64,000 bases of DNA from Bacteroidota bacterium (lineage in GTDB: Bacteria; Bacteroidota; Bacteroidia; Palsa-965). Both the position numbers and the translations under genes were made by a program. The stretch spans positions 255,947 through 319,946 of the forward strand of contig JACQAM010000007.1 in the NCBI GenBank assembly GCA_016194975.1. The letters are read 5' to 3'. Below, piece after piece: positions 44,371 to 63,313 of this stretch; the stretch's first letter is position 1; every line of letters starts with the position of its first letter. A model generated the notes under the pieces. It made no database searches and was not told the origin of the DNA. It worked only from the letters and a program-made list of their open reading frames with translations.

Positions 44371-46968
44371 ATGAAAAAATTTTTACTCGTTGCAGCACTT
44401 CTTTCCGTAAGTAGTCTCGCGAAATCGCAGGCGCTTGCTGCTTCCTCTTCTCAAACCGATGTCACCTGCTTCGGCGCGTGTAACGGATCTGCAACTGTCA
44501 TTGCATCCGGAGGAACTTCTCCATACTCTTACAACTGGTCGCCGAGCGGCGGTACCGCGGCAACTGCGAGTGCGCTCTGCGCCGGAAATTATACTTGCAC
44601 AGTTACTGATGCCGTTTTCGCTTCGGTGAATGTTACGGTCAACATCACACAACCCACTCCAATTACTATCAGTCCTTCGCAGCAGAATGTTTCATGCAAT
44701 GGAGGAAACGATGGCCATGCACTCGCAACGGTAAGCGGCGGCGCGGGATTTTTCACTTACTCATGGTCGCCCGTCGGTGGAAATGCACCGATTGCTAATT
44801 CCCTGACTGCGGGAATTTATACCGTCACTGTCACGGATGCAAATTCATGTACAGCTTCCCAAACATTTCAGATCACAGAACCTCCCGCACTGAGCGCAAC
44901 AAATGCTATTGTAAATGTAAGTTGCTTTGGCGGGTCAGACGGAAGTGCCGTGGTAACTGTCAATGGCGGAACTCCCGGTTATATGTATTCCTGGGCGCCG
45001 GGCGGATACACCACTGATTTTGCAAACGGGCTCAGCGAAAATCTTTATCTCGTTTCCATCACGGATCTCAATGGTTGTTTTCTCCGTGACACGGTCAACA
45101 TAAGCGCTCCTTCGCAATTAACGAGTTCAATTACAGGAACAGATGTTACCTGTTTCAATTCCAATGACGGAACAGCAATGATCACAGTCAATGGCGGCAC
45201 CGGGCCTTTCAATTATTCCTGGGCGCCGAATGGTGGATCCGGGAATACACAAACGGGGCTTTCAGCAGCCACCTATACGTGTAATGTTACAGATGCGCAT
45301 GGTTGTACTACAACACAAACCATCGATATCACGGAACCGGCGCCGCTTTCTTCGATTGATTCGCAAACCGACGTAAGTTGTTTCGGTGGCAGCAACGGAT
45401 CTGCATCAGTGAGTGTAAGCGGCGGCAATGGATCCTATTCTTACAACTGGTCGCCCTCAGGAGGAAATTCTTCTATGGCGGGCGCACTCATGGCCGGAAG
45501 TTATTCCTGTACCATCACCGATATCAATGGATGCATGCTTACCGAAACTTTCAGTTTAACAGAACCATCGCTTATCACTGTTGTAGGTTCGCAGTTCGAT
45601 GCGTCATGCAGTGGCGGCAATAACGGCAGTGCGACTGTAAATGCAAGTGGAGGAACGGGGCCGCTTACTTATTCCTGGACAAGCGGCGGAACGGCCGCAA
45701 CAGAAACTTCGCTGTCGGCAGGATCTTACACCTGCACAGTTACAGATATGAATGGTTGTGTTGCAACACAAACCTTCGTTATCACGGAACCAGCTGCGAT
45801 GACTTCGAACGCGATGATCACCGGTGTCACCTGTTATAATTTCAACAACGGAAGCATCACGCTCAATATGAATGGCGGAGCGGCTCCTTATAATTATTAC
45901 TGGTCCGATTTTTCCAATAATGCTTATGATTCGATGCTCGTTGCCGGAGTTTACACACTCACCGTGCAGGATGCAAACAGTTGCGTTTTCAATGATACAT
46001 TCACTGTTTCTCAACCTGCACCGCTTTCATTTGTGGTAACGCAAACTGACATTTCTTGTCACGGTAATAACGATGGAACTGCTTCCGTAACTCCATCCGG
46101 TGGAACCGGCCCCTATACTTATTTGTGGAATACCGGGAATACTTCTTCATCACTCACCGATCTTTCACAGGGAATTTACACTTGTGTTGTTACCGATTCG
46201 AACGGATGCGTTGATTCAGCACAGGCATCTATTTATGATCCGGGACAATTGGTAGCATTTGTACAGGCGGTGTTGAATCCAACAACATGTGGCGCTTCTG
46301 ATGGCGGAATTAATATTGCAATGACCGGTGGAACACAACCTTTCATTTACCAATGGAGTAACGGCGATACGATCGAAGATCTTTACAATATTGCTGCCGG
46401 TGTTTATTCACTCACTGTAACTGATGCGCATGGTTGCGTTGGAACTGCACTTGCAACACTCAGCGATCCGAATGCTCCTGTTGTTGCAATGACGCTGCCG
46501 GAAACTTTCATTTGCATTGACGATGATACACTCCTGATTTCCGGTATTCCTGCAGGAGGAACTTTCACCGGCAATGGAATGAATGGAAGTGTTTTCGATC
46601 CATCTCTCGCCGGGTTGGGTCAAAGTGTGATAGCGTATGCGTACACGGATACGAACGGATGTTTGGGCGCGACCACTGACACGATCACTGTGGATCCGTG
46701 TACAGGAATACAGGTGAATGCCGATTATTCTCAATGGAATATTTTCCCGAATCCTACGACCGGTGATGTTTTTATTACTGCTTACGTGCCAACAGAAGAA
46801 CCTGTGCATGTTCAGCTTTTTTCTTCAGAAGGAAAATTGATCCGCGATGTGGAATGGAATACAAAAGATGAAATGCATTTCGGAATACAGGACGAGGCAA
46901 GCGGCATTTATCTTGTGAGAATTATTTCTGCAGATTCTGAAAAATCATTCCGCATCATCAGGCAATAA
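44371..46968 (+). CDS. secreted T9SS cargo protein with about 8 SprB repeats and Por C-terminal sorting domain
   Basis: Signal peptide. Repeats (SQTDVTCFGxxNGSATVxASGGTxPYSYNWSPSGGTAAT…TYTCTVTD…). C-terminal module shared with the 47130 gene. Por tail. Confidence 0.8.
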   Translation: MKKFLLVAALLSVSSLAKSQALAASSSQTDVTCFGACNGSATVIASGGTSPYSYNWSPSGGTAATASALCAGNYTCTVTDAVFASVNVTVNITQPTPITISPSQQNVSCNGGNDGHALATVSGGAGFFTYSWSPVGGNAPIANSLTAGIYTVTVTDANSCTASQTFQITEPPALSATNAIVNVSCFGGSDGSAVVTVNGGTPGYMYSWAPGGYTTDFANGLSENLYLVSITDLNGCFLRDTVNISAPSQLTSSITGTDVTCFNSNDGTAMITVNGGTGPFNYSWAPNGGSGNTQTGLSAATYTCNVTDAHGCTTTQTIDITEPAPLSSIDSQTDVSCFGGSNGSASVSVSGGNGSYSYNWSPSGGNSSMAGALMAGSYSCTITDINGCMLTETFSLTEPSLITVVGSQFDASCSGGNNGSATVNASGGTGPLTYSWTSGGTAATETSLSAGSYTCTVTDMNGCVATQTFVITEPAAMTSNAMITGVTCYNFNNGSITLNMNGGAAPYNYYWSDFSNNAYDSMLVAGVYTLTVQDANSCVFNDTFTVSQPAPLSFVVTQTDISCHGNNDGTASVTPSGGTGPYTYLWNTGNTSSSLTDLSQGIYTCVVTDSNGCVDSAQASIYDPGQLVAFVQAVLNPTTCGASDGGINIAMTGGTQPFIYQWSNGDTIEDLYNIAAGVYSLTVTDAHGCVGTALATLSDPNAPVVAMTLPETFICIDDDTLLISGIPAGGTFTGNGMNGSVFDPSLAGLGQSVIAYAYTDTNGCLGATTDTITVDPCTGIQVNADYSQWNIFPNPTTGDVFITAYVPTEEPVHVQLFSSEGKLIRDVEWNTKDEMHFGIQDEASGIYLVRIISADSEKSFRIIRQ

Positions 46969-47129: not shown

Positions 47130-50003
47130 ATGAAATCAAAATTCTACATGAAATGGAATGCATTGCATGCACGTGTTGCGGCAATGAGTTTTGCGATCCT
47201 GCTGTTGTTCAATCTTCATTCAGATGCGCAAACTGTTTACACATTTACCAGCGCGGCTGCCACTGGCGTTAATGGCCCTACGCAGGCGCAGGTGAACACA
47301 GCTTATACTTCAACAACACTTGCCGGAGCTGTTACTGTTGTAAGTAATGGAATTCAGCAATGGACAGTACCTGCAACAGGAAATTATACCATTGAAGGAT
47401 ACGGAGCGCAGGGAGGAAACGGAACCGGATTTAGCCTGATCGGTGGAAGAGGCGCTTACATCAAAGGAACATTTAATCTCACTGCTGGAACTGTTCTCAA
47501 TATTGTTGTAGGACAGATCGGCGCTGATGCAAGTTCAGGAAGTTCTGGTGGCGGCGGAACTTTTATTTACACAGGTGCAATTGGCGGCGCAGGATTAATG
47601 ATCGCTGCCGGTGGTGGTGGCGGAACAGGACACAACGTTGCGAATGGTGGAAACGGAAGTGCAACGAGTACTCCCGTTAGCAGCGGAACAGGAAGAGGAG
47701 ACGGCGGATACCAGGGATTAGGAATGGGTGGAAATGGTGGATCAGGTGTTGGAGGATATTCTGCAACGTGGAATAATGCTGCAGCTGGTGGTACAGGTTG
47801 GGGAAGTAGTGGACTCGCAGGATTTTTCCAGGGCGATGTTACTTATCAGAGTAATCCGGGAACAAGATTCACCGGAGGATATCATGGAACTGTGAATACA
47901 GATTTTCCCGGCGGATTTGGTGGAGGTGGTGGTTGCGGTGGTTGGGGATATTCTGGTGGTGGTGGCGGTGGATACACTGGTGGCGGTGGTGGAGATGACT
48001 GGGACGGAAATTCCGGGCCGTGCTCTTGCGGCCATGGCGGTGGACAAGGTGGTGGAAGTTTCAATTCAGGAACAAGTCAAACCAATACTGCCGGTGTAAG
48101 AAGCGGGGACGGAACTCTGATCATCACTAACATTTATTCAGCTACAACTGCAGTTTCATCACCAATCACTTGCAATGGCGCATCGAATGGTTCTCTTACT
48201 GTAACGGTGACCGGCGGAACGAGTCCTTATACTTATTCATGGGCGCCAACAGGAGGAACTGCTGCAACGGCTAGTGGATTATCTGCGGGAACTTATACCG
48301 TAACCGTAACTGATGCTACTTCCGCAGTTACTACAAGTACATTCAATCTTACACAACCGTCAGTAATCTCTACTTCTGTTTCTTCGCAAACGAACGTTTC
48401 CTGCAATGGCGGATCGAACGGAGTGATCAACGTTTTTGTTACCGGTGGAACACCCGGCTACGCTTACTCGTGGGCGCCATTGGGGGGAAGTATGGCAACG
48501 GCATCCGGCCTTCCTGCAGGAACCTATACCTGCACGGTCACCGATGCGAATGGTTGTACTGCAACACAACCTGCCGTCATAACACAACCAACGGCAATTA
48601 CAACTTCTGTTTCGGCTCAAATGAACATTACCTGCAACGGAGGCAACAACGGATCTGCAACCGTCACTCCTTCCGGAGGAACTCCGGCCTATTCTTTTTC
48701 CTGGTCACCATCGGGAGGAACCTCTGCATCGGCTTCCAGCCTGCCGGTAGGGTCATATACCTGCACGGTCAGCGATGCCAATGGTTGTACTGTAACACAA
48801 ACCGTGATGATCACAGAACCTACGGCTATCGTTACTTCGGTTTCTTCACAGACGAATGCAACCTGCAATGGAAACATGGACGGATCTGCAACAGTTGCTG
48901 CTTCGGGCGGAACCGGCGCTTATACTTACATGTGGAGTCCGACCGGTGGTTCTACGGCTATGGCAACGGGACTTGGTGCCGGAAGTTATTCCTGCACGAT
49001 CACGGATGCCAATGGTTGTACTGCAACACAAACACTCAGCATCACAGCACCGATGACGGTCACGTCTTCCGTTTCCAGCCAGATGGATGCTACATGCAAC
49101 GGAGGAAGCGACGGATCAGCTACGGTAATGGCTTCCGGAGGAACCGGGCCTTACACTTACGCGTGGAGTCCAATGGGAGGAAATGCTGCAATGGCAGCAG
49201 GACTTTCAGCCGGAACTTATTCCTGCTTGGTCACGGATATGAATGGTTGTACTACAACACAAACCGTTATGATCGCTGAACCTTCGCCGATCATTGTAAC
49301 AACAATGGGAACTGATCCTACCGGATGCGGCGCAAATGACGGGTCTATAACCATGTCTGTGAACGGCGGAACACCCGGATATACTTTCATGTGGAGCAAC
49401 AGTGCGACGACACAGAATATTTCCGGACTCACCGCAGGAACCTACACCTGCATCATTACCGACATGAACGGATGCAGCGCGAATGGAAGTGCAACACTGG
49501 TGGATCCGAATCCTCCAACGGTGACTTTGAATATTCCGACTTCGACTATTTGCTTCGATGATGCCACACTCGCATTGACCGGTGAATCTCCTTCGGGCGG
49601 AACATTCAGCGGAAGTGGTGTAACCGGAAATTCATTCGATCCTTCGGTTGCGGGAAACGGAACACAAGTGATCACTTATATGTTCACTGCCACCAATGGA
49701 TGCTCCGGTACAGCAATGGATTCTATAGTTGTTGATCCTTGTACAGGAATCCGGAATGCAAATTCCAATTCAACATGGAATCTTTATCCGAACCCTACGA
49801 CGGGCGAAATTTTCATCACAGGTTCATTGCACCAGGAAGTCCGTGTACAGTGTTTCACCTCTGATGGAAGAATGATCCGTGATTTCATGATGATCCCGAA
49901 TGATAATTCGAAATTCAGTTTGAGCAATGAAGCGAGCGGGCTTTACCTCGTGCGCATCATCTCTTCTGAAAAAACAGAATCGTTCAGGATCACCAAACAA
50001 TAA
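47130..50003 (+). CDS. secreted T9SS cargo protein: N-terminal glycine-rich domain, about 8 SprB repeats, Por C-terminal sorting domain
   Basis: Signal peptide. About 250-aa Gly-rich region (…GAQGGNGTGFSLIGGRGAYIKGTF…GGGGGYTGGGGGDDWDGNSGPCSCGHGGGQGGG…), then SprB repeats and a tail paralogous to the 44371 gene. Confidence 0.8.
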   Translation: MKSKFYMKWNALHARVAAMSFAILLLFNLHSDAQTVYTFTSAAATGVNGPTQAQVNTAYTSTTLAGAVTVVSNGIQQWTVPATGNYTIEGYGAQGGNGTGFSLIGGRGAYIKGTFNLTAGTVLNIVVGQIGADASSGSSGGGGTFIYTGAIGGAGLMIAAGGGGGTGHNVANGGNGSATSTPVSSGTGRGDGGYQGLGMGGNGGSGVGGYSATWNNAAAGGTGWGSSGLAGFFQGDVTYQSNPGTRFTGGYHGTVNTDFPGGFGGGGGCGGWGYSGGGGGGYTGGGGGDDWDGNSGPCSCGHGGGQGGGSFNSGTSQTNTAGVRSGDGTLIITNIYSATTAVSSPITCNGASNGSLTVTVTGGTSPYTYSWAPTGGTAATASGLSAGTYTVTVTDATSAVTTSTFNLTQPSVISTSVSSQTNVSCNGGSNGVINVFVTGGTPGYAYSWAPLGGSMATASGLPAGTYTCTVTDANGCTATQPAVITQPTAITTSVSAQMNITCNGGNNGSATVTPSGGTPAYSFSWSPSGGTSASASSLPVGSYTCTVSDANGCTVTQTVMITEPTAIVTSVSSQTNATCNGNMDGSATVAASGGTGAYTYMWSPTGGSTAMATGLGAGSYSCTITDANGCTATQTLSITAPMTVTSSVSSQMDATCNGGSDGSATVMASGGTGPYTYAWSPMGGNAAMAAGLSAGTYSCLVTDMNGCTTTQTVMIAEPSPIIVTTMGTDPTGCGANDGSITMSVNGGTPGYTFMWSNSATTQNISGLTAGTYTCIITDMNGCSANGSATLVDPNPPTVTLNIPTSTICFDDATLALTGESPSGGTFSGSGVTGNSFDPSVAGNGTQVITYMFTATNGCSGTAMDSIVVDPCTGIRNANSNSTWNLYPNPTTGEIFITGSLHQEVRVQCFTSDGRMIRDFMMIPNDNSKFSLSNEASGLYLVRIISSEKTESFRITKQ

Positions 50004-50063: not shown

Positions 50064-51521
50064 TTGATCATGCGGAAAATATTCCTCCCACTTTTTCTTT
50101 TTTTCTTTTTCCACAAGATCTCCGCCCAGAGTTTTCTCGGTTACGAACACAGCAATTATGCAGGAATAGTCGGCGCTTCGTACAATCCTGCTTCGCTCGC
50201 CGATAATAATTACAGTCTCGATATCCTGGTCGGCGGTTTAGATGTGGAAGGAGCGAATAATTATGTGGGCGTAAAAAGAAAAGACTTCGGAATTCCCGAT
50301 TGGGGAACGCAGAATCTTTATTTGCGCGATGGAAGAAATACGAAGAAAGCTGCATTCGCACGAGCGGAGATTCTTTTGCCCGCGGTGATGTTCTCCAATG
50401 ATAAATTCGGATGGGGCGTAGATATGAAGATACGCACGTATGCAAATATTGACGGAGTGGAACCTGAGCTCGCGCACCTGCTCGCACGCGGATTGAAAGA
50501 TCCTGCCGACTATCAGGAATTTCATAATAAGCACGTGGGTGCGAATGCGTGTTCGTGGTTCGAGATCGGCGGCACTTATTCGAAAACTATATGGACCGGC
50601 GCTGAACATTTTGTGAGTGTAGGTGTGCGCCCTAAATTTTTACTCGGTCTCGGCGCCGCTTATGCTTTTGTAAATGATCTCGAGTACCAGGCGTATAGCG
50701 ACACTACTGTCGGAATTTTCCGTTCCGATCTGAAATTCGGCCACTCGGATAATTTCGCATTCGGCGCAAATTTTTCATGGCAGGGGTATCACATCGGGTT
50801 CAATCCGGGAATAGGATTGGATGCAGGAATCATTTATGAATTTCGCCCGGACGCAATGCAGAAAGACAAAAAAGATAAACCGAAAGAATGGCCCGGATTC
50901 CGTGAGCGTCCGATTTACAAATACCGGATTGGTGCATCACTGACCGATCTCGGCATCATTCATTTCCGTTCCGGTATTTTTACCGATCATTATTCTGCAA
51001 ATTCAGAGGACTGGAATTTCAATAACAAAGATTTAAACTATACAGAGCCCGGCCCGATCTACAATAATTTTTCATTGGGGAATGCAGGAAAAGGAAGCGG
51101 AAAAGGATTGTGGATGCGCACACCGCTGGCCCTCGATCTTTTTTACGATTATCATTACCGCGATAATATTTATTTAAGCGGGCAATCTTTCAATGCACTT
51201 TATTTCCGCGGAACTGATTTTAAAAAAGTTCACGAGCTCACGCGCATAAGCGTGACCGCGCGCTACGAAACGCGCTGGTACGGTGCGTGGGTGCCCGTAT
51301 CATTCACGCGCATGGGCACAGTGAGCATGGGCGCGGGATTCCGTCTGGGTCCGTTCATTTTCGGAACGACAGATCTTTTAAATCTCATTCTGAAAAGCAA
51401 AAAAGTTTACAATGCGGATTTTTACTTCGCGCTGAAAGTTCCGCTCTTCCCGACCGGAAAACTGAAAACGAAAAAAGGAAAAGCAAAGACGGGAGGAAAT
51501 CCGGTTGATTGTCCGAAGTAG
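50064..51521 (+). CDS. outer-membrane protein, possibly FadL/OmpP1/PorV-like beta-barrel
   Basis: Signal peptide. The N-terminus …NYAGIVGASYNPASLAD… resembles the conserved FadL-family N-terminal segment (…AGxxxAxxNPAxL…). Unusually, the C-terminus is Lys-rich and not aromatic. Confidence 0.4.
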   Translation: MIMRKIFLPLFLFFFFHKISAQSFLGYEHSNYAGIVGASYNPASLADNNYSLDILVGGLDVEGANNYVGVKRKDFGIPDWGTQNLYLRDGRNTKKAAFARAEILLPAVMFSNDKFGWGVDMKIRTYANIDGVEPELAHLLARGLKDPADYQEFHNKHVGANACSWFEIGGTYSKTIWTGAEHFVSVGVRPKFLLGLGAAYAFVNDLEYQAYSDTTVGIFRSDLKFGHSDNFAFGANFSWQGYHIGFNPGIGLDAGIIYEFRPDAMQKDKKDKPKEWPGFRERPIYKYRIGASLTDLGIIHFRSGIFTDHYSANSEDWNFNNKDLNYTEPGPIYNNFSLGNAGKGSGKGLWMRTPLALDLFYDYHYRDNIYLSGQSFNALYFRGTDFKKVHELTRISVTARYETRWYGAWVPVSFTRMGTVSMGAGFRLGPFIFGTTDLLNLILKSKKVYNADFYFALKVPLFPTGKLKTKKGKAKTGGNPVDCPK

Positions 51522-52100: not shown

Positions 52101-54497
52101 ATGAACGAACAACTTATTTATCTGGTTCCCGCATTGGGAATTCTCGGACTCATTTTCATGATCCTCAAATCGGCGTGGGTGAGTAAACAGGATGCGGGAA
52201 ACGATCGCATGAAAGAAATTGCAGGATATGTTTCAGAAGGAGCGATGGCATTCCTGAAAGCTGAATATCGCATTCTCGCAATTTATGTCGTACTCGCCGG
52301 CAGCGCACTCGGTTGGTTGAGCCAAGAGGTAACTACTTCTCACATTCTTATCGTCGCTGCATTTGTTTGCGGATGTATTTTTTCTGCACTCGCCGGATTT
52401 TTCGGAATGCGAATCGCTACAAAAGCAAACGTTCGCACAACGCAGGCGGCGAGAACTTCTCTTGCAAAAGCACTGAGAGTTTCTTTCACCGGCGGAACAG
52501 TGATGGGACTCGGTGTTGCCGGACTCGCAGTTCTCGGACTAAGTATGCTCTTCATTATTTTTTTCCAGTTTTTCATGCAGAGTTCACTTGCGAATGGCGG
52601 ATATGAAAAAATGACGCAGGTACTTGAAGTGCTCGCAGGATTTTCTGTGGGTGCAGAATCGATCGCGCTTTTCGCTCGTGTGGGCGGTGGAATTTATACC
52701 AAAGCCGCAGATGTTGGAGCCGATCTCGTTGGAAAAGTAGAGGCAGGAATTCCGGAAGATGATCCGCGTAATCCCGCAACCATTGCAGATAACGTTGGTG
52801 ATAATGTGGGTGACGTTGCAGGAATGGGCGCCGATCTTTTCGGATCGTACGTCGCAACAGTTCTCGCGTCGATGGTGCTGGGCAATTATGTGATTCGCGA
52901 TATGGTTGCAGCGAATGGAAATTATGATGTGATCCCGTTCAAAGGACTCGGCCCCATTTTTCTTCCACTCATGATCTCTGCTGCAGGATTATTCGCTTCC
53001 ATCATCTCCAGTTATTTTGTGAAGGTTGCCGACAATGCAAAAACAGATACACGTACCGTACAACGGGCACTCAATATCGGAAACTGGTCTTCGATTCTTC
53101 TCTCGCTCGTAGCCGCTTATTTTCTCATTCAGCAATGTTTGCCTGCAACAATGAACATCAGTGTTTTCAACGCGGGTGAATTCGGAAAAGCAACTACAAC
53201 AAGTATGCATATTTTCTATGCGGTGATGATCGGAATGTTTGTAGGTGGTGCAATTTCATTTATCACCGAATATTTTACCGGCCTCGGCGGGCGTCCTGTA
53301 AGAGGCATCGTCGAAAAATCTGCGACAGGTGCAGCAACAAATATTATCGCCGGGCTCGGAACAGGAATGTTATCTACTGCACTTCCTGTAATTCTTTTCG
53401 CAGGTGCGATCTGGGGCGCGTATTCACTCGCAGGATTTTACGGAGTAGGAATTGCAGCGTGCGCGATGATGGCGAACACCGCAATGCAATTGGCGATCGA
53501 TGCATTCGGTCCCATTGCAGACAACGCCGGCGGAATTGCAGAGATGAGTGAACTTCCTGCAGAGGTTCGAGAGAAAACAGACGTACTCGATTCAGTTGGA
53601 AATACAACTGCTGCTATCGGGAAAGGATTTGCAATTGCATCCGCAGCGCTTACTGCACTCGCACTTTTCGCTGCTTACGTAACATTCACCGGCATCAACG
53701 GAATAAATATTTTCGATGCAAAAGTTCTCGCTGCGTTATTTCTCGGCGGAATGATCCCGGTTGTTTTCTCCGCGCTCGCTATGAATTCGGTTGGTAAAGC
53801 AGCAATGGATATGGTGAATGAAGTACGCCGGCAGTTCCGCGAAATACCCGGCATCATGGAAGGAAAAGGAAAACCTGAATATGCAAAGTGTGTTGCTATT
53901 TCCACGAAAGCTGCATTGCGCCAGATGTTATTGCCGGGCGTGATCACGATCGTAACTCCAATCATTGTTGGATTGGTGATGGGCGCAGAAGCGCTCGGTT
54001 CTTATATGGCAGGCGTAACCGTGAGCGGTGTACTCTGGGCAATTTTCCAGAACAATGCCGGTGGTGCGTGGGACAATGCAAAAAAATCTTTTGAAAAAGG
54101 TGCGGAGATAGAAGTGAACGGCAAGAAAGAAATTTTTTATAAAAAATCTGATCCGCATAAAGCGGCTGTCGTTGGTGATACGGTTGGTGATCCTTTCAAA
54201 GATACTTCCGGCCCGTCGATGAATATTCTCATCAAGCTTTCCTGTCTCGTTGGACTCATGCTTGCACCACTTCTCGCCGGACACAATGCTACCGCAATGA
54301 ACAACATGTGCAAAGGAAATTCCTGCTGCACCCAGATGATGAATATGAAATGCGATCTGAATAAATGCATGCACATGACGCAGCAACAATGCGCGCAGTA
54401 TTGCGACTCGATGAAATGTACGCCCGAAGAAAAAGAAATGTGTTTGAAACATGCAATGGGTGGAAGCTGCTACGATTCGACAAAGTGCAATAAGTAA
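52101..54497 (+). CDS. hppA: membrane-bound (K+-stimulated) H+/Na+-translocating pyrophosphatase with an unusual Cys/Met-rich C-terminal extension
   Basis: Multi-transmembrane protein with the M-PPase conserved segments (…DNVGDNVGD…, …GDTVGDPFKDTSGPSMNILIKL…). Length 798 aa. Confidence 0.9.
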   Translation: MNEQLIYLVPALGILGLIFMILKSAWVSKQDAGNDRMKEIAGYVSEGAMAFLKAEYRILAIYVVLAGSALGWLSQEVTTSHILIVAAFVCGCIFSALAGFFGMRIATKANVRTTQAARTSLAKALRVSFTGGTVMGLGVAGLAVLGLSMLFIIFFQFFMQSSLANGGYEKMTQVLEVLAGFSVGAESIALFARVGGGIYTKAADVGADLVGKVEAGIPEDDPRNPATIADNVGDNVGDVAGMGADLFGSYVATVLASMVLGNYVIRDMVAANGNYDVIPFKGLGPIFLPLMISAAGLFASIISSYFVKVADNAKTDTRTVQRALNIGNWSSILLSLVAAYFLIQQCLPATMNISVFNAGEFGKATTTSMHIFYAVMIGMFVGGAISFITEYFTGLGGRPVRGIVEKSATGAATNIIAGLGTGMLSTALPVILFAGAIWGAYSLAGFYGVGIAACAMMANTAMQLAIDAFGPIADNAGGIAEMSELPAEVREKTDVLDSVGNTTAAIGKGFAIASAALTALALFAAYVTFTGINGINIFDAKVLAALFLGGMIPVVFSALAMNSVGKAAMDMVNEVRRQFREIPGIMEGKGKPEYAKCVAISTKAALRQMLLPGVITIVTPIIVGLVMGAEALGSYMAGVTVSGVLWAIFQNNAGGAWDNAKKSFEKGAEIEVNGKKEIFYKKSDPHKAAVVGDTVGDPFKDTSGPSMNILIKLSCLVGLMLAPLLAGHNATAMNNMCKGNSCCTQMMNMKCDLNKCMHMTQQQCAQYCDSMKCTPEEKEMCLKHAMGGSCYDSTKCNK

Positions 54498-54697: not shown

Positions 54698-54891
54698 ATT
54701 GAGGATACTAATTGCGAATTACCCGAATATCCGGATCAGGATTTGTGAAATGTGCAATTTACGCGGCTGCACGCGCTTTACATTTAAAATCTGCAAATTA
54801 TTCTTCCCGCGTTATCCGGAATTCAATTTTCTTTTATGGTTGGACTCCTCTACGTTTGTCAGGTAACGAAATTGAAATAAAAAACAGAGCC

Positions 54892-55608
54892 ATGAAAAAG
54901 AAACTGACTATTCTATGCCTGCTCACTTCTCTTTTCGCTTTCGCGCAGAAGGACAGCACCATTCTGCTTAAAAAGAATTCACTCAACTTCCAGGCAGGTG
55001 GAATTTCTTTTTTCCCACAAGTAAATTACGAACGGATTTTTTACCAGAAGAAAAAACTCAAACTTAATGCTTCCATCGGAATAGATCCTGTCGATATGTT
55101 TTTTGCCGCGGTTTTCAATGGCCCGAAATTCATTGGCACAGTCGAATCAGACGCCATGCTCGGAAGAAAAAATAATTTCCTGGAAATGGGAATTGGAAAT
55201 CTTTTGGAATATAAATCTTCAGGCGAATATCCCCGCAGGAAAACAGAATCCTATTTGCTTTACGGGCCAGGCGATCCTGATGGTTTTCAATATGGCGTCA
55301 AGGACGTAAAAACAGTGAATTATTATCAAGCAAAATTCAATATGAGGATCGGATACCGGTATCAGAATGTAAATAAGAAATTTTACTTCCGCATCGCATG
55401 GATACCAACCGTGATTTTGAAACTGGGTTATAAAATGGAACCTTACGATCAATTAATAAGATTACGCGGCAGTATATGGGGTGACTCTTATTACAACGAC
55501 TACAGACCGATCCCGTCGGAATATCATCCATCTGGTCACGGTGTCGAATCCATTGCAGAGATCTATACACTCAATGGAGCATTTACAATTGGATATCTGT
55601 TCAGGTAA
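54892..55608 (+). CDS. hypothetical outer-membrane protein
   Basis: Signal peptide MKKKLTILCLLTSLFAFAQ from the ATG at 54892. Composition like an amphipathic beta-strand protein. Confidence 0.45.
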   Translation: MKKKLTILCLLTSLFAFAQKDSTILLKKNSLNFQAGGISFFPQVNYERIFYQKKKLKLNASIGIDPVDMFFAAVFNGPKFIGTVESDAMLGRKNNFLEMGIGNLLEYKSSGEYPRRKTESYLLYGPGDPDGFQYGVKDVKTVNYYQAKFNMRIGYRYQNVNKKFYFRIAWIPTVILKLGYKMEPYDQLIRLRGSIWGDSYYNDYRPIPSEYHPSGHGVESIAEIYTLNGAFTIGYLFR

Positions 55609-55699
55609 AAGAATGCAGAAGTGCAGTTTCGTTTAAAAATCAATACATCATTAAAATAAAAATTTTGCGCTAAATACTAATCACGCAACAATCACTACC

Positions 55700-56707
55700 A
55701 TGCGTTTCAATATTTGCAATACAAAAATGAAGTCCACATGCAATTCGATTTCGGAAAATGAATCAACTGGTTTACGTTTGTCATGTCAATCAATCAACTG
55801 CATGATAAAACCTTTACACACCGTTTGCACAAGAAAAATTATTTCTTTTCTACTTGTAGCATTTTTATTTTTCTCTGACTCCTGCCACAATTTCGCGGAG
55901 ATTGACAAAATGAATTACAGAAAAGATCGTGCGAGCCGTCACATTCCAAAGGAAAATACTATTCCTTTCTTCAATTTGACTCTGAATAATTTTTCAAAAG
56001 ATTCCATTATTCCAAGATCAAATGATACCGTAGGAATATTTTCAGCGGTCAAATCCTTACATGAAAATATTATTGACAAGCATCCTTCTCTTTTATCCGA
56101 TACAAACCGTTCGAAAAAAGGAAAAGCAAAGTGGCATCCTGCTTCAAAAAAGAATGATGAACCTTTAACGCCACAGGAAGAGGTGAACGAAGATTTCAGA
56201 AAAGGAAAATTATATCTTGCCTTGGGGATTCTTTTTCCACTCCTTCTGTTTCCGATGTCGATCTTCTTTCTATTCGAGGCAAGAAACAAAATGAAAGAAT
56301 ACGGCATCGTGGATGAGCAATTGAAACAAAAAATAAATTTCTGCATTTTTTTAACGATCGTCTTCGCCATTGGCTTCGGTGCCTTTTACATTTATCTTAT
56401 GATCATGCTGGTACAGGGATTCCTTTTTCTAATGGGTGTGATGAGTGAGGTTTGTTACATTGCAACGATGGTTTATGGTGATTATGATGCGCCCGAAGTT
56501 CTTGTGCTGAGAAAATTCCGTGATGAAAAACTGAAACCACATTTCGCCGGCAGGATTTTCATTGCCGTTTACTATGCTTTGTCGCCCTACTTCGTGAAAT
56601 TTTTCCGGAACAATAAAAGCGTGAACAGATCCTGCAAATACCTTCTTGACAAATTTGTTGCGCGGCTGAGAAGGGAATTTGCGGAAGAACAGATTATTCT
56701 GAATTGA
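55700..56707 (+). CDS. hypothetical integral membrane protein with a conserved-looking C-terminal soluble domain
   Basis: Three or four transmembrane helices in the centre. C-terminal …YGDYDAPEVLVLRKFRDEKL…GRIFIAVYYALSPYFVKFF…KYLLDKFV… Start uncertain (ATG at 55700 or 55727). Confidence 0.4.
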   Translation: MRFNICNTKMKSTCNSISENESTGLRLSCQSINCMIKPLHTVCTRKIISFLLVAFLFFSDSCHNFAEIDKMNYRKDRASRHIPKENTIPFFNLTLNNFSKDSIIPRSNDTVGIFSAVKSLHENIIDKHPSLLSDTNRSKKGKAKWHPASKKNDEPLTPQEEVNEDFRKGKLYLALGILFPLLLFPMSIFFLFEARNKMKEYGIVDEQLKQKINFCIFLTIVFAIGFGAFYIYLMIMLVQGFLFLMGVMSEVCYIATMVYGDYDAPEVLVLRKFRDEKLKPHFAGRIFIAVYYALSPYFVKFFRNNKSVNRSCKYLLDKFVARLRREFAEEQIILN

Positions 56708-56785
56708 TAATAAAAGATAATGAAATGCAACTTCTTCGATTCGAAAAAAATAACCCTTGAATAACAAAACTTAAAAACTAAAACC

Positions 56786-58990
56786 ATGTACAATAATCAG
56801 CCTGAAAAATTTACTGCGACTGCCTTCAATTTCTGCCATCGCACTGCTATCGGCCAGGGCGCGTCAACTTATTTGCCATTGGCCGGTGGCACGCAACAGC
56901 CTTCCTCAACCGGTGAAACAAGTATTTTAATTTCTCGAAGCGGAACGTTGAAAAATCTTTTCTGGGATTGCAAATCAAATTCACTGACCGGATCGGGAAA
57001 TATATTTACTGTTCAATTTGCTTTAGAACATGTTTCACCTGCTAATGCGCTTGCCCTTGGAAATAATATTTCAGTTTCACTCGATGGCAAAATAACAAAT
57101 GGAACCGGCGTGCTTAGCTTAAATGTCAGTGCAGGACAGCGCATTGCTATATTGGTACAAACAGCCTCTGGCGGACCGTCTACAAATATTGTAAATCTCA
57201 GAGTCTCCTTTGAACTCGAATCAGATTTACCGCAACCTAATCCATGGAATTTATCCGGAACAAATCTTTCTTACACCGGAGGTAATGTTGGAATTAATAG
57301 TATTAACCCTTCGGAGAAATTGGACGTGAGCGGTTCAGTAAAAATTGTGGATGGAACGCAAGGAGCAGGAAAAGTTTTTACATCAGATAACAATGGTAAG
57401 GGAAGCTGGGTAACACCAAATAATTTGCCGAATGGAACGAATGGGCAAACGCTTAGGCATGATGGAACAAATTGGAAAGCAGATTCCAATTTATTTAATG
57501 ATGGAACCAGGGTTGGAATCGGAACACTGACGCCGCAATATTATTTCGAAGTCCATCATCCGGATAGCACATCTACTATTGCGGTTACAACAAGCCAGAG
57601 TAATGGATACGCTCAGTTTATTATGACTAATCCTGATTCTATTTGGGCAATGGGTTTCGTTGACGGTGGTCTGAGTGACTGGCGACTTGCAAATTATTCT
57701 ACGGGTGTCCGCGTTTTAACAGCAACAACAACGGGAAGGTTGGGTATTGGAGTACAAATCCCAAGAGCTAAACTTGACGTTGATGGTGATATTAATATTT
57801 CAGGAGGCAGCACAATTAAAATTGATTGCGAAGATATTTTAGTGGTTAAACAAAACAACACTTTCATCGGTCTGCAAGCTGGCTACAATAACGGGCATCA
57901 TTTATCTAATTCAGGATTTGGTGACAGAGCATTAGCAGACAACATGGGAGATGAAAACAGCGCTTTTGGTTGTTCGCCATTGCAGTTTAATAAAACCGGC
58001 ATTCAGAATTGTGCGTTTGGCAACTCTACACTTTTGCAGAATACAGATGGTTCAGGCAATACAGCGATGGGTTATCAATCCGGGATGAAAAATGCTTCCG
58101 GTAACAATAATACTTACATCGGAATTAATTCCAGAACAACAGGAAATTATGATAACTCAACAGCCATCGGTGCAAATTCAATTGTTGAACAAAGTAACAG
58201 TTTAGTGCTTGGTGATTTAAATGTAAATGTTGGAATAGGAATTACAAAACCACAAGACAAACTTCATGTAGAAGGAAGTATAAATATTGGAACTTCTTGT
58301 GCTTATAAAATTGATGGAAGCAGGGTATTAGTCAAAAGTGGGCAAAATTTATTGCTTGGTGATGCAAATACGAATGTTGGAATCGGATCAACTGATCCAC
58401 GAGAGAAAATCACACTTGGATCTGATTCTAATATTGCAATTGAAATGTCGCCTCCATCAACTTCAATTATCACCGGCCATCACGCAATTGGTTACTTAAC
58501 AGAGGGAGACGTTTACTATTTCAGGGTAGCAGCTTCCGACGGAACAGGATGGACGAGAGCTTCTGATCCCGTGTCATTTATTGTCGATGTTTACAAAACT
58601 ATTCGCATTGGTTGGAACGCGATTCCGGGAGCAATGAACTATAGATTGTTTAAATCCTCTTCTCCTTCAGGCCCCTATAGTTTTGTTGATGTGCCGTCGG
58701 GTTCAGGGCCATCCGCAGGTTATGAATTTATGAACGAGGCGCAATTCACGATCACATCATTTCCTCCTCCGGAAGAAAACACTGCGTATGTCAATAAATT
58801 ATCTGCTTCCGGCAATAGTTGGTTGATGGGGGGAAATCTTGGTATCGGAACATCTGCTCCGACGAGTCAATTGCAGGTCGTTGGTTTGCCGGTGTATACA
58901 AATAATCTTGCAGCGCGAAATGCAGGTTTATCGCAAGGAGCTTTCTACAGAACCGGCGGTGATCCGGATTTGGTTTGCGTGGTGCATTAA
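56786..58990 (+). CDS. phage tail-fibre-like / fibre-repeat protein without a signal peptide
   Basis: Repeated …GNVGINSINPSEKLDVSGSVKI…, …TRVGIGTLTP…, …GRLGIGVQIP…, …VNVGIGITKPQDKLHVEGSINIG…, …GNLGIGTSAPTSQLQVVG… motifs. NSxAxG-type head repeats. One FN3-like domain. Confidence 0.5.
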   Translation: MYNNQPEKFTATAFNFCHRTAIGQGASTYLPLAGGTQQPSSTGETSILISRSGTLKNLFWDCKSNSLTGSGNIFTVQFALEHVSPANALALGNNISVSLDGKITNGTGVLSLNVSAGQRIAILVQTASGGPSTNIVNLRVSFELESDLPQPNPWNLSGTNLSYTGGNVGINSINPSEKLDVSGSVKIVDGTQGAGKVFTSDNNGKGSWVTPNNLPNGTNGQTLRHDGTNWKADSNLFNDGTRVGIGTLTPQYYFEVHHPDSTSTIAVTTSQSNGYAQFIMTNPDSIWAMGFVDGGLSDWRLANYSTGVRVLTATTTGRLGIGVQIPRAKLDVDGDINISGGSTIKIDCEDILVVKQNNTFIGLQAGYNNGHHLSNSGFGDRALADNMGDENSAFGCSPLQFNKTGIQNCAFGNSTLLQNTDGSGNTAMGYQSGMKNASGNNNTYIGINSRTTGNYDNSTAIGANSIVEQSNSLVLGDLNVNVGIGITKPQDKLHVEGSINIGTSCAYKIDGSRVLVKSGQNLLLGDANTNVGIGSTDPREKITLGSDSNIAIEMSPPSTSIITGHHAIGYLTEGDVYYFRVAASDGTGWTRASDPVSFIVDVYKTIRIGWNAIPGAMNYRLFKSSSPSGPYSFVDVPSGSGPSAGYEFMNEAQFTITSFPPPEENTAYVNKLSASGNSWLMGGNLGIGTSAPTSQLQVVGLPVYTNNLAARNAGLSQGAFYRTGGDPDLVCVVH

Positions 58991-59149: not shown

Positions 59150-60007
59150 TCAAAACTGAAAATAAAATCCAACGTGTAAACCAAAAGTCTTCAGGTGAAA
59201 TTTCTGCTCGATTGCAACCGGTTTTCCATTGGTGAGAAAATTTGATTCCGTCGCACCTTCATCCATGTTATAAATCGAATATTTTTTTACAGGATTACTC
59301 AGGCCGTGTGTCCAGTGCGATCCGAAAGCAAAAACAAAATGTTTTCCGAGTTCAATCCTGTTTTCCATCCCGGCATATAAGGTGAACAAAGTAGAATTCA
59401 TTTCATTCCTGGTGACTGCATCCCCGAGCGTAACGAAGATCTCCGTCGAATCAGAATATTTGTAATAGTAATCTTCAAAATCAGTTTCTGTCCTGAATTG
59501 CAATTCTCCTCCAACTATGAAAGTGAAAGAATAAATATCATACTTCACGATCCGGAAATTCACCAGCATTGGAACTACTGCGTAATTTGATCCGTAAGTC
59601 CGCGAATCAAACAAACATTTATTGGTTCCCGGATGAAGACGCAGATAACTGCTGTCGATCTGGCTGATGGGAACAAGCGCATTGCCGGACTGGTAAACCA
59701 TGATCGCCTTCTCGCTCTCAATTCTGCCAGCGATACGCGCGAAAAAAATTCCTGATGTGAAAAATATTTTTGGCTTCCATTCATACCCCGCAACCAACCC
59801 GATCGATAACGTCTCGACGATTCCACCTAATCCAAGTCCGCCTTCAAGAATATCGGGCCTCCTGTAAACCTGGCTGTTCTCCGGTTTGAAATTTGTCCAT
59901 TCCAATGAGGGTTGCACACCGATCATGAAACGATGTGCGATCGAATCCTGCGAATGAGCAAAAAAAGTTGCTGTAGAAAAAAGCGAACTGAGAATTATTT
60001 TTTTCAC
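59150..60007 (-). CDS. hypothetical outer-membrane beta-barrel protein
   Basis: Signal peptide MKKIILSSLFSTATFFAHSQ. C-terminal …VGFYFQF (terminal Phe). Confidence 0.5.
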   Translation of the reverse strand: MKKIILSSLFSTATFFAHSQDSIAHRFMIGVQPSLEWTNFKPENSQVYRRPDILEGGLGLGGIVETLSIGLVAGYEWKPKIFFTSGIFFARIAGRIESEKAIMVYQSGNALVPISQIDSSYLRLHPGTNKCLFDSRTYGSNYAVVPMLVNFRIVKYDIYSFTFIVGGELQFRTETDFEDYYYKYSDSTEIFVTLGDAVTRNEMNSTLFTLYAGMENRIELGKHFVFAFGSHWTHGLSNPVKKYSIYNMDEGATESNFLTNGKPVAIEQKFHLKTFGLHVGFYFQF

Positions 60008-60261: not shown

Positions 60262-61920
60262 ATGAAAAACCTCTTTACCCTATTCTTCCTTTTAATTTCT
60301 TCTGCAATTTTTTCTCAAACTCCCGGCTGGAACTGGTCGCGTGTTGCCGGAGGAGAGAGTTACGATCTCGGAAGTTGTATTGCCACTGATAATTCGAACA
60401 ACGTGATCACGTGCGGATATTTTTACGGCGACACGGTTTTTTTCGGCACACATACTTTGCTTAACAAAGGCCTCAACGATTTTTACATTGTGAAATATGA
60501 TGCAAATGGAAATGTGGCCTGGGCAACGAGTGAAGGTGGTGCTGGTGATGATTATGCAATTGCGCTCGCGCCTGATGCTTCCGGAAATATTTATGTCACC
60601 GGTTATTTCACCGGCGATTCGCTCATCATCGGTAACGACACCTTGTTGAATGCATCGGCCGGCTACGGAGATATTTTTGTGGCGAAATATAATTCGAATG
60701 GAATTCCCCAATGGGCAAAACGTTTCGGCGCGGGCGACTGGGATATTGCGCAAGCGGTAGCGGTTGAACCTTCTACAGGAAATTTTTATGTGGCCGGATG
60801 TTATTACAACAGCACGATCACTATCGGAACAAATACATTCACCAACAACGGACTTTACGATGTACTGCTGATAAAATTCGATCCTTCCGGAAATGTGAAG
60901 TGGGCAAAACATTCCGGCGGCTCGCTCAATGATATGGGCAATGCAGTGGCGACAGATAACTTCGGAAATATTTATATCTCCGGTGGATTTGCAAGTGATT
61001 CGCTCACGTTCGGCACAACTACTTTGCATAATGCAGGCCCGGGTTATCCCGATATTTTTGTTGCGAAATATGATTCGGCAGGAAATTTCCGCTGGACAAA
61101 ACGCGCTGGCGATTCGCTGAACGATCATTCTGTTTGTGTGGCCACTGATAATTCCGGGAATTGTTTTGTAGGCGGGCATTATCACAGCGCCTCATTTCAA
61201 TTTGCAAGTACTACGATCACGAACAATGGAATGGGCGATGTGTATTTGTTGAAATATGATTCTGCAGGAAATGAATTGTGGGGAAGAGGCCAGGGCGGAG
61301 CGATGCATGATTTCGGTTATGCAGTGGCGGTAGATGCGGTGGGAAATTCCTACATGAGCGGAATGTTCAACAGTTCGTCAATGACAATTGGCACAACAAC
61401 GCTAACAAATTCTTCCATGAGCAGCCAGGATATGTTTTTATACAAATACGATCCTTCCGGAAATCCGTTGTGGGCGATTAGTGCAGGAGGAATGACGGAC
61501 GATGAAATGAATTCCATTGCCATCGGATCTTCCGGCGCAATATACGCGACCGGCGACTGGAGAAGCCCGATGATAAATTTTGGCCCCGATAATTATTTCA
61601 ATGAAGATTCCACGATCGGTTATGCCGATATTTTCATTGGGAAATTAGATGTGATGACGGGAATGAGTACTATGAGTGAAACAAAAAATATTTTTCTGTA
61701 TCCCAATCCTTCGAATGGAATTTTCACCATCCGGAATAATTTTTCCGAAACTTTTGAACTGCAAATTTTCAATTCACTCGGACAGGAAATTCTTCGCAAA
61801 GAAAATCTGAATGAAAATAATTTTGAAATTGATCTGGGCAGTGAAGCCAATGGAATTTATTTCATGAAGGTAATGAGCGATGAAAATATTTATTCGGAAA
61901 AAATAATCATTGAGAAATAA
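60262..61920 (+). CDS. secreted SBBP beta-propeller-repeat protein with Por C-terminal sorting domain
   Basis: Signal peptide. About 9 repeats of (…GDIFVAKYNSNGxxxWAKRFGG…). Tail TKNIFLYPNPSNGIFTIRNNFSETFELQIFNSLGQEIL…IIIEK. Confidence 0.8.
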   Translation: MKNLFTLFFLLISSAIFSQTPGWNWSRVAGGESYDLGSCIATDNSNNVITCGYFYGDTVFFGTHTLLNKGLNDFYIVKYDANGNVAWATSEGGAGDDYAIALAPDASGNIYVTGYFTGDSLIIGNDTLLNASAGYGDIFVAKYNSNGIPQWAKRFGAGDWDIAQAVAVEPSTGNFYVAGCYYNSTITIGTNTFTNNGLYDVLLIKFDPSGNVKWAKHSGGSLNDMGNAVATDNFGNIYISGGFASDSLTFGTTTLHNAGPGYPDIFVAKYDSAGNFRWTKRAGDSLNDHSVCVATDNSGNCFVGGHYHSASFQFASTTITNNGMGDVYLLKYDSAGNELWGRGQGGAMHDFGYAVAVDAVGNSYMSGMFNSSSMTIGTTTLTNSSMSSQDMFLYKYDPSGNPLWAISAGGMTDDEMNSIAIGSSGAIYATGDWRSPMINFGPDNYFNEDSTIGYADIFIGKLDVMTGMSTMSETKNIFLYPNPSNGIFTIRNNFSETFELQIFNSLGQEILRKENLNENNFEIDLGSEANGIYFMKVMSDENIYSEKIIIEK

Positions 61921-61927
61921 TTTTTTC

Positions 61928-63313
61928 ATGAAAACGAAATTCATTTTAGTTTTTGCAATCATTATCTTAGGTCTGCCATTTTATTTTTCTGCCCAGACTT
62001 TTAGCGGTGGTTACCAGCATTCACTCGCAATCTGTAGTGATCATACCGTAAAAGCGTGGGGAAATAATAGTTCGGGTGAGTTGGGAATTGGCAATACAAC
62101 TGATAGTTATTTTCCTGTTACGGTTAATTCTCTCACCGGGATCATTGCTGTTTCTGGCGGCGGCGGTTTTTCGATCGCGTTGAAAAATAACGGAACACTT
62201 TGGGCATGGGGTGATAATTCTACAGGCGAACTCGGAAATGGAAATAATGCAAGCAGCAATATTCCCGTGCAGGTTACGAACTGGACCACAGGTTATGTTT
62301 CGGTTGATGCAGGTTTCGACCATTTACTTGCAATAAAACCTGACGGAACCGTCTGGTCTTGGGGAACGAATACTTACGGGCAACTCGGAATCGGAAATTT
62401 CTCCAATAGCAATGTTCCTGTTCATGTTTTAGGTTTGACAGGAATTATCGCTGTGTCGGCAGGAAATGGAAATTCTCTCGCGTTGAAAAATGACGGAACC
62501 GTGTGGGCATGGGGACTGAATCATTCGGGCCAACTCGGCATCGGTGATACCGCGAACAGAAATCTTCCTGTGCAAATAAATATTACAAACATTATTTCTA
62601 TTTCTGCTGGTTATGCTCATTCGCTCTTTCTCAGGAATGACAGTACAGTTTGGGGCAGTGGTTGGAATGTTTATGGACAGCTCGGAACCGGAAATAATAT
62701 CAGCAGTAATACTCCAGTGCAATCAACGGGTCTTTCTGGAATAATTTCCATTACTGCAGGATGCGGACATTCGAATGCCTTGAAAAGCGATGGAACAATT
62801 TGGGCGTGGGGAGAAAATATGTCCGGTGAACTCGGTGACGGGAATGGTGAATTTGCAAGCAACGTTCCGGTCGCGGTTGCATTTCTCAACGGAGTTTCTA
62901 CAATAGGAATTGGCGGCAGGCAATCTTTTGCTCTGAAAAACGATGGAACATTCTGGACGTGGGGACAAAATAATTATGGACAACTCGGAAATGGAAATAC
63001 AAATGACAGCCCTGTTCCTGTGGAGTTGAATGGATTTTGCCAGGTTGCGGCTTCAGTAAATGAAATTGAAGAAACAAAAAATATTTTTCTGTTTCCCAAT
63101 CCTTCTTCCGGAATTTTCACAATCAGAAATAATTTTTCAGGAAATTATCAAATAGAAATTTTCAATTCACTCGGACAGGAAATTTTGCATAATGAAAACC
63201 TGAATGAAAATAATTTTGAAATTGATCTGGGCAGTGAAGCCAATGGAATTTATTTCGTGAAGGTAACGAGCGATGAAAAAATTTATTCACAGAAAATAAT
63301 TATTGAGAAATAA
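61928..63313 (+). CDS. secreted RCC1-repeat beta-propeller protein with Por C-terminal sorting domain
   Basis: Signal peptide MKTKFILVFAIIILG. Seven repeats of (…WxWGxNxxGQLGxGNxxxxxxPVxV…). Tail almost identical to that of the preceding gene. Confidence 0.8.
   Translation: MKTKFILVFAIIILGLPFYFSAQTFSGGYQHSLAICSDHTVKAWGNNSSGELGIGNTTDSYFPVTVNSLTGIIAVSGGGGFSIALKNNGTLWAWGDNSTGELGNGNNASSNIPVQVTNWTTGYVSVDAGFDHLLAIKPDGTVWSWGTNTYGQLGIGNFSNSNVPVHVLGLTGIIAVSAGNGNSLALKNDGTVWAWGLNHSGQLGIGDTANRNLPVQINITNIISISAGYAHSLFLRNDSTVWGSGWNVYGQLGTGNNISSNTPVQSTGLSGIISITAGCGHSNALKSDGTIWAWGENMSGELGDGNGEFASNVPVAVAFLNGVSTIGIGGRQSFALKNDGTFWTWGQNNYGQLGNGNTNDSPVPVELNGFCQVAASVNEIEETKNIFLFPNPSSGIFTIRNNFSGNYQIEIFNSLGQEILHNENLNENNFEIDLGSEANGIYFVKVTSDEKIYSQKIIIEK

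Follow-up and report, generated by a model that had tools for sequence, protein, structure and literature searches.

Thousands of "tail fiber domain-containing" proteins are encoded in Bacteroidota genomes, and we found no experimental study of them in the literature searched. Several better known fibres offer points of comparison. YadA-family trimeric autotransporters carry 14-residue head repeats of the N-S-x-A-x-G type and a C-terminal YadA_anchor barrel, and tailspikes of the K1F endosialidase type are modular trimeric β-structured rods with an S74 domain. In C1q/TNF-headed fibres, e.g. Bacillus BclA (exosporium nap), C1q, the collagen-like fibres of giant viruses, or gp015 of phage 7-7-1, the head is C-terminal and distal (PMC12796354). 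In the fibres of extracellular contractile injection systems (eCIS; Afp13/Pvc13, eBAP1-5), the N-terminal domain is conserved, whereas the C-terminal modules, among them Collar, S74, and C1q, are exchanged horizontally (PMC12923769). Here, we compare with these systems the 734-residue product of a gene located at positions 56786-58990 (+ strand) of a 64,000-nucleotide stretch of a Bacteroidota genome (assembly GCA_016194975.1, contig JACQAM010000007.1, positions 255,947 to 319,946), which we call the window.

Based on six copies of a repeated motif, on head-type repeats, and on similarity along the whole protein, this fibre protein is, by its sequence, a member of the Bacteroidota tail-fibre-domain superfamily. 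An earlier interpretation of the same DNA (the sequence-only reading) had described it as an isolated, phage-tail-fibre-like protein, and had overlooked both an N-terminal C1q/TNF-like head, which defines a rare subfamily, and a conserved 34-residue C-terminal tail. We consider it an even call that the gene encodes a stand-alone chromosomal fibre of this superfamily, probably homotrimeric, which serves adhesion or recognition; the structural side of this interpretation stands on much firmer ground than the functional side. Being alone in the chromosome and without a recognizable export signal, the protein poses a modest puzzle but does not represent a new kind of system. Its modules and its general class are familiar. 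In the sources searched, however, the head family, its reversed polarity, the FN3-related module, and the occurrence of signal-less orphans are not described.

Membership of the tail-fibre-domain superfamily

The open reading frame (ORF) starts with ATG, and its coordinates and length, as given by the sequence-only reading, agree exactly with the ORF listing. In-frame stop codons lie directly upstream of the start; therefore, the ORF has no 5' extension. The identical protein is recorded at NCBI as MBI3510183.1, "hypothetical protein HY064_05930", from a Bacteroidota metagenome-assembled genome (MAG) on a 405-kb contig. The repeated motif noticed earlier holds up well: written as G-x-[VL]-G-I-G…P…KL.V or as [VL]-G-I-[GN]…P…[LIF].[VLF], and termed here the GIGT motif, it occurs 6 times (at residues 168, 243, 319, 482, 531, and 685) versus about 0.003 times expected, the mean in 20,000 shuffled versions of the protein being 0.0032 and the maximum 1. 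We found no literature on the GNVGIGT motif.

Among the candidates scored, 1,278 proteins are homologous to the fibre protein at E ≤ 1e-3, the best with an E of 1e-89. Mostly chromosomal Bacteroidota proteins encoded on contigs of up to several Mb, they typically comprise 1,000-1,300 residues with PF13884 (S74) and/or PF26696, and the named ones are called "tail fiber domain-containing protein" or, in some cases, "trimeric autotransporter adhesin". They resemble the fibre protein in the GIGT motif, the YadA-head-like repeats, and the chromosomal location, with 30-48% identity over the shared modules. By segment-wise BLAST, two central regions are common to 97/120 and 92/120 of the best homologues, the former being residues 150-351, whereas residues 1-150 are found in only 3 of the 120, all of which begin at residue 1. 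In a crude hydropathy test, an N-terminus resembling a signal peptide was recognized for 102 of the 118 best homologues scored and, because of this proportion, we regard the superfamily as consisting mainly of bacterial envelope proteins and not of virion parts. Most of these proteins thus carry a Sec signal, together with S74 and/or a sorting tail of the type IX secretion system (T9SS), whereas the fibre protein lacks all of these features. Conversely, its C1q-like head and FN3-related module occur in almost none of them. The modules of the protein are listed in Table 1, together with related features discussed below.

Table 1 Modules of the fibre protein, genes upstream of it, and small podophage proteins with its tail motif.
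Feature	Residues	Position	Strand	Remarks
C1q/TNF/BclA-type jelly-roll head (predicted)	1-148	56786..57229	+	Defines the subfamily
Neck and three GIGT joint modules	150-351	57233..57838	+	Motifs at residues 168, 243, and 319; small β units between them
YadA-head-like β-roll	352-478	57839..58219	+	About 8 degenerate repeats of 14-16 residues, N-[ST]-x-[FIM]-G
Another pair of GIGT joint modules	479-548	58220..58429	+	Motifs at residues 482 and 531
FN3-related module	549-682	58430..58831	+	About 125 residues; signature of the head-domain subfamily
Sixth GIGT motif	683-700	58832..58885	+	
Conserved C-terminal tail (34 residues) and stop codon	701-734	58886..58990	+	LPVY-NN-AA--GL--G-FYRTGGDPD-VCVVH
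Multi-pass membrane protein with CFI-box-CTERM		55700..56707	+	NCBIfam NF041770, E 1e-21; 3-4 transmembrane-like windows; 78 bp upstream of the fibre gene
Signal-peptide protein, possible outer-membrane barrel		54892..55608	+	No family match
Small tail-motif protein		L015:10001-10204		
Small tail-motif protein		L017:10001-10186		
Small tail-motif protein		L005:3905-4096		EBPR podovirus 1 gp23

An N-terminal head of the C1q/TNF type

The sequence-only reading had proposed a structure comparison of the N-terminal part, and this comparison revealed the C1q/TNF-like head that the reading itself did not contain. The AlphaFold2 (AF2) model obtained with an alignment of 46 sequences is an all-β sandwich with a predicted local distance difference test score (pLDDT) of 86.8 and a predicted template modelling score (pTM) of 0.82. 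According to this model, the head is a ten-strand jelly roll of the C1q/TNF type, its membership of the superfamily being predicted by fold only. Fold matches in BFVD were C1q/collagen-type fibre heads of giant viruses and phages, and an independent full-length AF2 model returned the same fold families. No match was found at the sequence level to the Pfam models C1q, TNF, and BclA_C, no model of Pfam, NCBIfam, or PHROG covers the head, and no significant similarity was found among PDB sequences, the best E value of 0.019 being a chance match. The head merits its own family model, at the level of a domain of unknown function.

An exhaustive search of 1.84 billion representative proteins with a head profile retrieved 69 proteins, 32 of them at E ≤ 1e-10. 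The head starts at residue 1 in approximately 25 of the 69, with the conserved start M-x-x-G-Q-P-E-K-Y-I-A-x-V-F-x-F-G, and it directly follows a typical signal peptide, which ends before strand 1, in approximately 10 others (P0138, P0139, P0142-P0144, P0148-P0150, P0156, and P0187; P and L denote our labels for proteins and loci). More distant relatives carry the domain at a C-terminal position. Two further head loci were obtained, one from the GTDB representative genomes and one from a short contig of the JGI metagenomes; the 46-sequence head alignment was too diverse for pattern scanning. In viral sequences, tblastn found no match to the head at E ≤ 1 in the 50,697 phage genomes of INPHARED, and three pattern scans of 2.9 million IMG/VR contigs, aimed at different subgroups, found nothing within the sensitivity of such patterns. 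Compared with the C1q/TNF-headed fibres mentioned above, the fibre protein thus has its head at the N-terminus instead of the C-terminus, and its stalk is a β-roll with joint modules instead of collagen.

The sequence-only reading had also claimed that the protein lacks an N-terminal signal peptide and a T9SS tail, and both claims agree with our results. The maximum 10-residue hydropathy within the first ~35 residues is only 0.64, residues 7-17 form strand 1 of the confidently folded head in the AF2 model, and the start without signal peptide is conserved in more than 20 homologues of the fibre protein; hydropathy revealed no transmembrane-like window anywhere in the protein. The T9SS sorting domains Por_Secre_tail and CHU_C gave no Pfam match at E ≤ 0.1, whereas neighbouring T9SS genes score 1e-8 to 1e-15 on these models, and the tail of the fibre protein is only 34 residues long. 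The S74 chaperone domain, with its autocleavage motif, was another feature that the sequence-only reading had suggested looking for; it was not found by Pfam (E ≤ 0.1) or with a hidden Markov model constructed from the S74 regions of 9 relatives (E ≤ 100). Pfam showed no YadA_anchor barrel either. Accordingly, the protein differs from trimeric autotransporter adhesins by the absence of both signal peptide and anchor, and from the S74 tailspikes, with which it shares a modular β-structured rod that is predicted to be trimeric, by its 34-residue tail in place of S74 and by the absence of phage context.

The rod and its similarity to phage fibres

Behind the head, the neck and first joint modules are modelled by AF2 with intermediate confidence (pLDDT 40-75). 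They lead into a β-roll with regular, periodic short strands (pLDDT 85-92). The N-S-x-A-x-G head-type repeats claimed for this region need rewording: a single strict copy is present, at residue 457, but approximately 8 degenerate repeats make up the roll, and the Pfam model YadA_head scores below threshold (E 0.036; 14.9 bits versus a cut-off of 25). The FN3-like domain of the sequence-only reading gave mixed results. Pfam fn3 gives no match, but a profile of residues ~552-679 matches the "Fn3-like protein" 3mpc among PDB sequences (E 3.5e-6 over 53 residues) and also the F-strand signatures of titin FN3 domains. The order of its parts looks permuted, with the F/G-strand signature YYFRVAASDGTGW placed ahead of an A-B-C-type stretch, IRIGWNAIPGAMNYRLF; because of this order, the module is not a canonical FN3, and we refer to it as FN3-related. 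AF2 confidence over this module is low (pLDDT 33-41). It is present in 11 other head-bearing proteins, ten of which came from protein searches and one of which is the upstream paralogue at L004, and in only one (P0002) of the 120 general homologues.

Similarity to phage proteins is concentrated in the rod. The PHROG families matched (virion structural, tail fiber, and tail spike; E 1e-13 to 1e-6) cover parts of the protein only, i.e. residues 165-210 for the tail fiber proteins phrog_28668 and phrog_9942 and residues 262-478 for the virion structural and tail spike families. Likewise, tblastn against 50,697 phage records yielded 9 matches with 31-43% identity, all within residues 303-483, such that the β-roll region is essentially the sole part in common with deposited phages. 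Neither comparison showed a resemblance to annotated phage fibres that extends along most of the sequence. The description as phage-tail-fibre-like is therefore justified for modules held in common with phage fibres, whereas it overstates the viral link, given 9 matching records out of 50,697.

The C-terminal tail and small podophage proteins

The 34-residue tail is shared, with 70-72% identity, by P0001 and by the signal-peptide-bearing P0118. A profile search with the tail retrieved 36 sequences, all of 32-72 residues, part of which are truncated fibre ends and part true small proteins. The latter are free-standing podophage proteins of ~60-70 residues with the tail motif (…YA[ND]NAAA..GGL.VG..YRTGGD…) as their C-terminal half and a W..[WF]F-type N-terminal half. 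One is gp23 of EBPR podovirus 1; such proteins are encoded among structural-module genes and differ from the fibre protein in being free-standing and in their N-terminal half. At L015, the gene overlaps by 4 nt the end of a head-closure gene (Hc3, gp10-like) immediately upstream, and the same module encodes a P22-type coat protein and a β-helix tailspike. The module at L017/L018 encodes an SU10-type adaptor, an endolysin, and an integrase. These small proteins belong to no PHROG family, and no solved structure among PDB sequences matches the tail. In this way, the tail ties a bacterial fibre to an unannotated family of small podophage proteins.

Two other interpretations of the tail were rejected. 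The stretch AFYRTGGDPDLVCVV resembles the fibritin hairpin AYVRKDGEWVLL of the T4 foldon, but the hhalign probability is 0.1% and no PDB sequence matches, leaving an analogy only. The terminal CVVH is not of the CaaX type, since in relatives the C is replaced by M or A, or one more residue follows the H.

Relatives of the head subfamily and the proposed fibre

Whereas the head is kept, the C-terminal modules are swapped among subfamily members, which end in Collar, S74, RCC1, or the 34-residue tail. A Collar domain is present behind the head in P0153, P0008, and proteins ending in …NETRPVNMSVVWIMRIK, and S74 or its characteristic C-terminal sequence in P0128, P0130, P0144, P0146, and P0148. 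The head is fused directly to an RCC1 β-propeller in P0124 (602 residues) and to collagen G-x-y repeats in P0122 (236 residues); given these two fusions, it behaves as a portable N-terminal unit. Most members have no signal peptide. Among the ~10 relatives with a Sec signal, two also have a T9SS tail: P0148 combines signal peptide, head, S74, and a Por_Secre_tail score, and the end of P0150 is, by inspection, very similar to Por_Secre_tail. Since in these relatives the head lies behind a Sec signal, its architecture works outside the cell.

A homotrimer is the most likely state of the fibre protein by analogy, with support from the collagen-fused P0122 and from the relatives with S74 or Collar; trimers are implied by the collagen fusion and by the S74 chaperone. 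To our knowledge, C1q-like folds are trimeric wherever a structure has been solved. The C1q-like head would bring three chains into register, possibly helped by the C-terminal tail, and the rod would project the head as the ligand-binding end. In C1q and BclA the head is the ligand-binding end, a part played in the long tail fibres of phages by the distal jelly roll; here, the polarity would be reversed, with the head at the N-terminus. The fibre would then serve adhesion or recognition outside the cell, and a form without signal peptide would presumably leave the cytoplasm by a Sec-independent route or be released by lysis.

Several observations weigh against such a role. The location outside the cell is proposed by analogy with signal-bearing relatives, while the fibre protein shows none of the known kinds of export signal and has no conserved transporter linked to it. 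The tail shares homology with small proteins encoded in the structural modules of podophages, linking at least one module of the protein to virions. The full-length AF2 model, computed as a monomer, has a pLDDT of only 57, leaving the FN3-related module and the tail without resolved structure. Moreover, a conserved N-terminus followed by variable C-terminal modules is the pattern of particle-attached fibres, in which the conserved end is an anchor and not a binding head (PMC12923769).

Genomic contexts and alternative explanations

We compared ten loci of the subfamily: the window, L001-L004, L007-L009, L011, and L013. Their neighbouring genes encode, e.g., RecA, LpxC/LpxD, GroEL, DegP, FtsH, EF-P, MurJ, and ribosomal proteins. 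None of the ten loci has a phage, eCIS, or integrase gene within ~8-10 kb, and none has baseplate genes beside the fibre gene. An all-against-all BLASTP comparison of the ORFs within 8 kb showed no neighbour common to more than two loci, the only links being MurJ in two related loci, fibre paralogues, and SBBP cargo proteins. From the absence of phage genes and shared neighbours at the ten loci, we conclude that the orphan status is a property of the subfamily. The isolation of the fibre gene, as stated in the sequence-only reading together with the advice to check synteny in relatives, is therefore not peculiar to this genome. In the window itself, a Pfam scan of the 27 larger ORFs (smaller and several mid-sized ORFs being left out) detected no phage, sheath, tube, or baseplate gene, in line with the earlier statement that capsid, sheath, tube, and baseplate genes are missing nearby. 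The window is ordinary chromosome, with genes for GAPDH, aconitase, isocitrate dehydrogenase, HemE, lipoyl synthase, and a membrane pyrophosphatase, and many for T9SS cargo proteins with SprB repeats.

Two of the ten loci contain a second fibre paralogue, as a tandem copy in L004 and as a second S74 fibre in L008. In L004, from a Bacteroidota MAG, both tandem C1q-headed paralogues (L004:8267-9958 and L004:10001-11677) contain the FN3-related module and end in a C-terminus of the Collar type; in the ORF list, the first codon of the upstream copy lies within the head, suggesting another start codon or a 5' truncation as possibilities.

These contexts bear on the question whether the protein could instead belong, as a fibre assembled in the cytoplasm and released by lysis, to a phage-derived particle whose genes lie elsewhere in the genome, e.g. 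a prophage, tailocin, eCIS, or particle resembling a gene transfer agent (GTA). Attachment would occur via the conserved N-terminal domain or the C-terminal tail, and the opposite end would bind the target. As in all virion fibres, a signal peptide is missing from more than 20 members of the subfamily, and their pairing of one conserved N-terminal domain with exchanged C-terminal modules, seen also in eCIS fibres, mirrors the anchor-plus-receptor-binding logic of eCIS and phages (PMC12923769). The paralogues in L004 and L008 are reminiscent of alternative tail fibres, and the PHROG matches, as well as the resemblance of the tail to a small protein encoded beside a head-closure/tail-hub gene of podophages, point in the same direction. 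However, eCIS fibre genes adjoin baseplate genes in ~90% of cases (PMC12923769), compared with 0 of the ten loci here, and no phage, eCIS, or integrase gene is nearby. The head was found neither in INPHARED nor, to the extent that pattern scans are sensitive, in IMG/VR; in solved fibres, a C1q/TNF jelly roll forms the distal end and not the baseplate anchor; and a place in virions can be excluded for relatives that carry both a Sec signal and a T9SS tail. The predicted jelly roll is set apart from the folds described for the eBAP domains, eBAP1/2 being helical bundles of ~50 residues and eBAP3-5 "shoulder" domains of ~200 residues (PMC12923769). Taken together, we find a particle-borne fibre, the strongest rival of the stand-alone fibre, rather doubtful.

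The sequence-only reading had offered three possibilities, a surface fibre exported by an unknown route, a remnant of a phage-tail-like or contractile-injection particle, and an adhesin module. The remnant is the least likely of them, because both the ORF and the subfamily are intact and conserved. A relic in decay, left behind by a lost prophage or contractile injection system and without present function, would account for the isolated location and for the partial similarity to phage structural families. It might also account for the GC content at third codon positions (GC3) of the fibre gene, which at 0.321 is the lowest of the 28 window genes tallied, compared with ~0.43-0.53 for housekeeping genes. 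However, other surface-repeat genes in the window have similarly low values (0.33-0.36) and, because of this, the GC3 is no clear evidence of recent transfer. In addition, the ORF of 734 residues is free of frameshifts, the orphan state recurs in unrelated genomic contexts, and the start, the head motifs, and the FN3-related module are kept across proteins that are only 33-51% identical, indicating selection. We give a relic hardly any credence.

Another possibility is a surface fibre for which the two genes directly upstream provide a dedicated export route. The three genes are encoded on the same strand with gaps of 91 and 78 bp, no terminator-like site was seen between them, and the membrane topology of the middle gene product, for which 3-4 transmembrane-like segments bear out the earlier description as a multi-pass membrane protein, would fit such a role. 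Among the three upstream regions examined, only that of the 54892 ORF contains the Bacteroidota -7 type motif TAnnTTTG (TACGTTTG, positions 54851-54858, 41 bp before the ORF), a consensus match only, and none precedes 55700 or 56786. Genes 54892-58990 may thus form one three-gene transcription unit, but the promoter support amounts to a single 8-mer consensus match. Furthermore, neither upstream gene has a counterpart at the 9 other subfamily loci, the CFI-box protein being absent from L001, for example, and neither product matches a known secretion component in Pfam or NCBIfam. No papers on CFI-box-CTERM were found in our literature search. The products of 54892-55608 and of 59150-60007 had been called outer-membrane proteins; this is plausible, as both have signal peptides and aromatic-rich C-terminal strands, but no family match backs it. 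Overall, export by these local neighbours appears very improbable.

A broader hypothesis is that, in Bacteroidota and related phyla, the signal-less, invariably orphan C1q-headed fibres make up a separate class of extracellular appendages, which are assembled in the cytoplasm and then either exported by an unrecognized Sec-independent route or docked on a particle encoded elsewhere, via the podophage-type tail or the conserved head. The docking variant would resemble GTAs, in which the genes for head spikes and tail fibres lie apart from the main cluster. We think such a class distinctly unlikely; if it exists, particles or cells would be armed or decorated in a novel manner. The subfamily holds both Sec/T9SS-exported and signal-less forms, thus showing phage-type modules moving between virions and bacterial surfaces and, if the signal-less forms reach the outside, they do so by an export route or particle association that is undescribed in this phylum.

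Other genes in the window

Several genes of the window deserve mention in their own right. The pyrophosphatase gene (52101-54497, +; 798 residues, "sodium-translocating pyrophosphatase" at NCBI) encodes a Cys/Met-rich C-terminal extension of ~70 residues (…NNMCKGNSCCTQMMNMKCDLNKCMHMTQQQCAQYCDSMKCTPEEKEMCLKHAMGGSCYDSTKCNK), which looks like a metal-binding tail and is unusual for this enzyme family. Three large T9SS proteins with SprB repeats are encoded at 26850-30560, 44371-46968, and 47130-50003 (+), the last with a Gly-rich N-terminal region and directly followed by a gene for a DUF5723 protein (50064-51521, +). An N6/N4 DNA methylase gene (32949-34028, −) adjoins an ORF of 518 residues without Pfam match (34110-35666, −), and the two may constitute a restriction-modification pair. 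Finally, the adjacent T9SS cargo genes 60262-61920 and 61910-63313 (both +) overlap by 11 nt and encode different passengers, an SBBP β-propeller and RCC1, respectively. Their C-terminal sorting domains of ~80 residues are nearly identical, suggesting recent duplication or gene conversion of the sorting tail, and a third related ORF starts at 63303.

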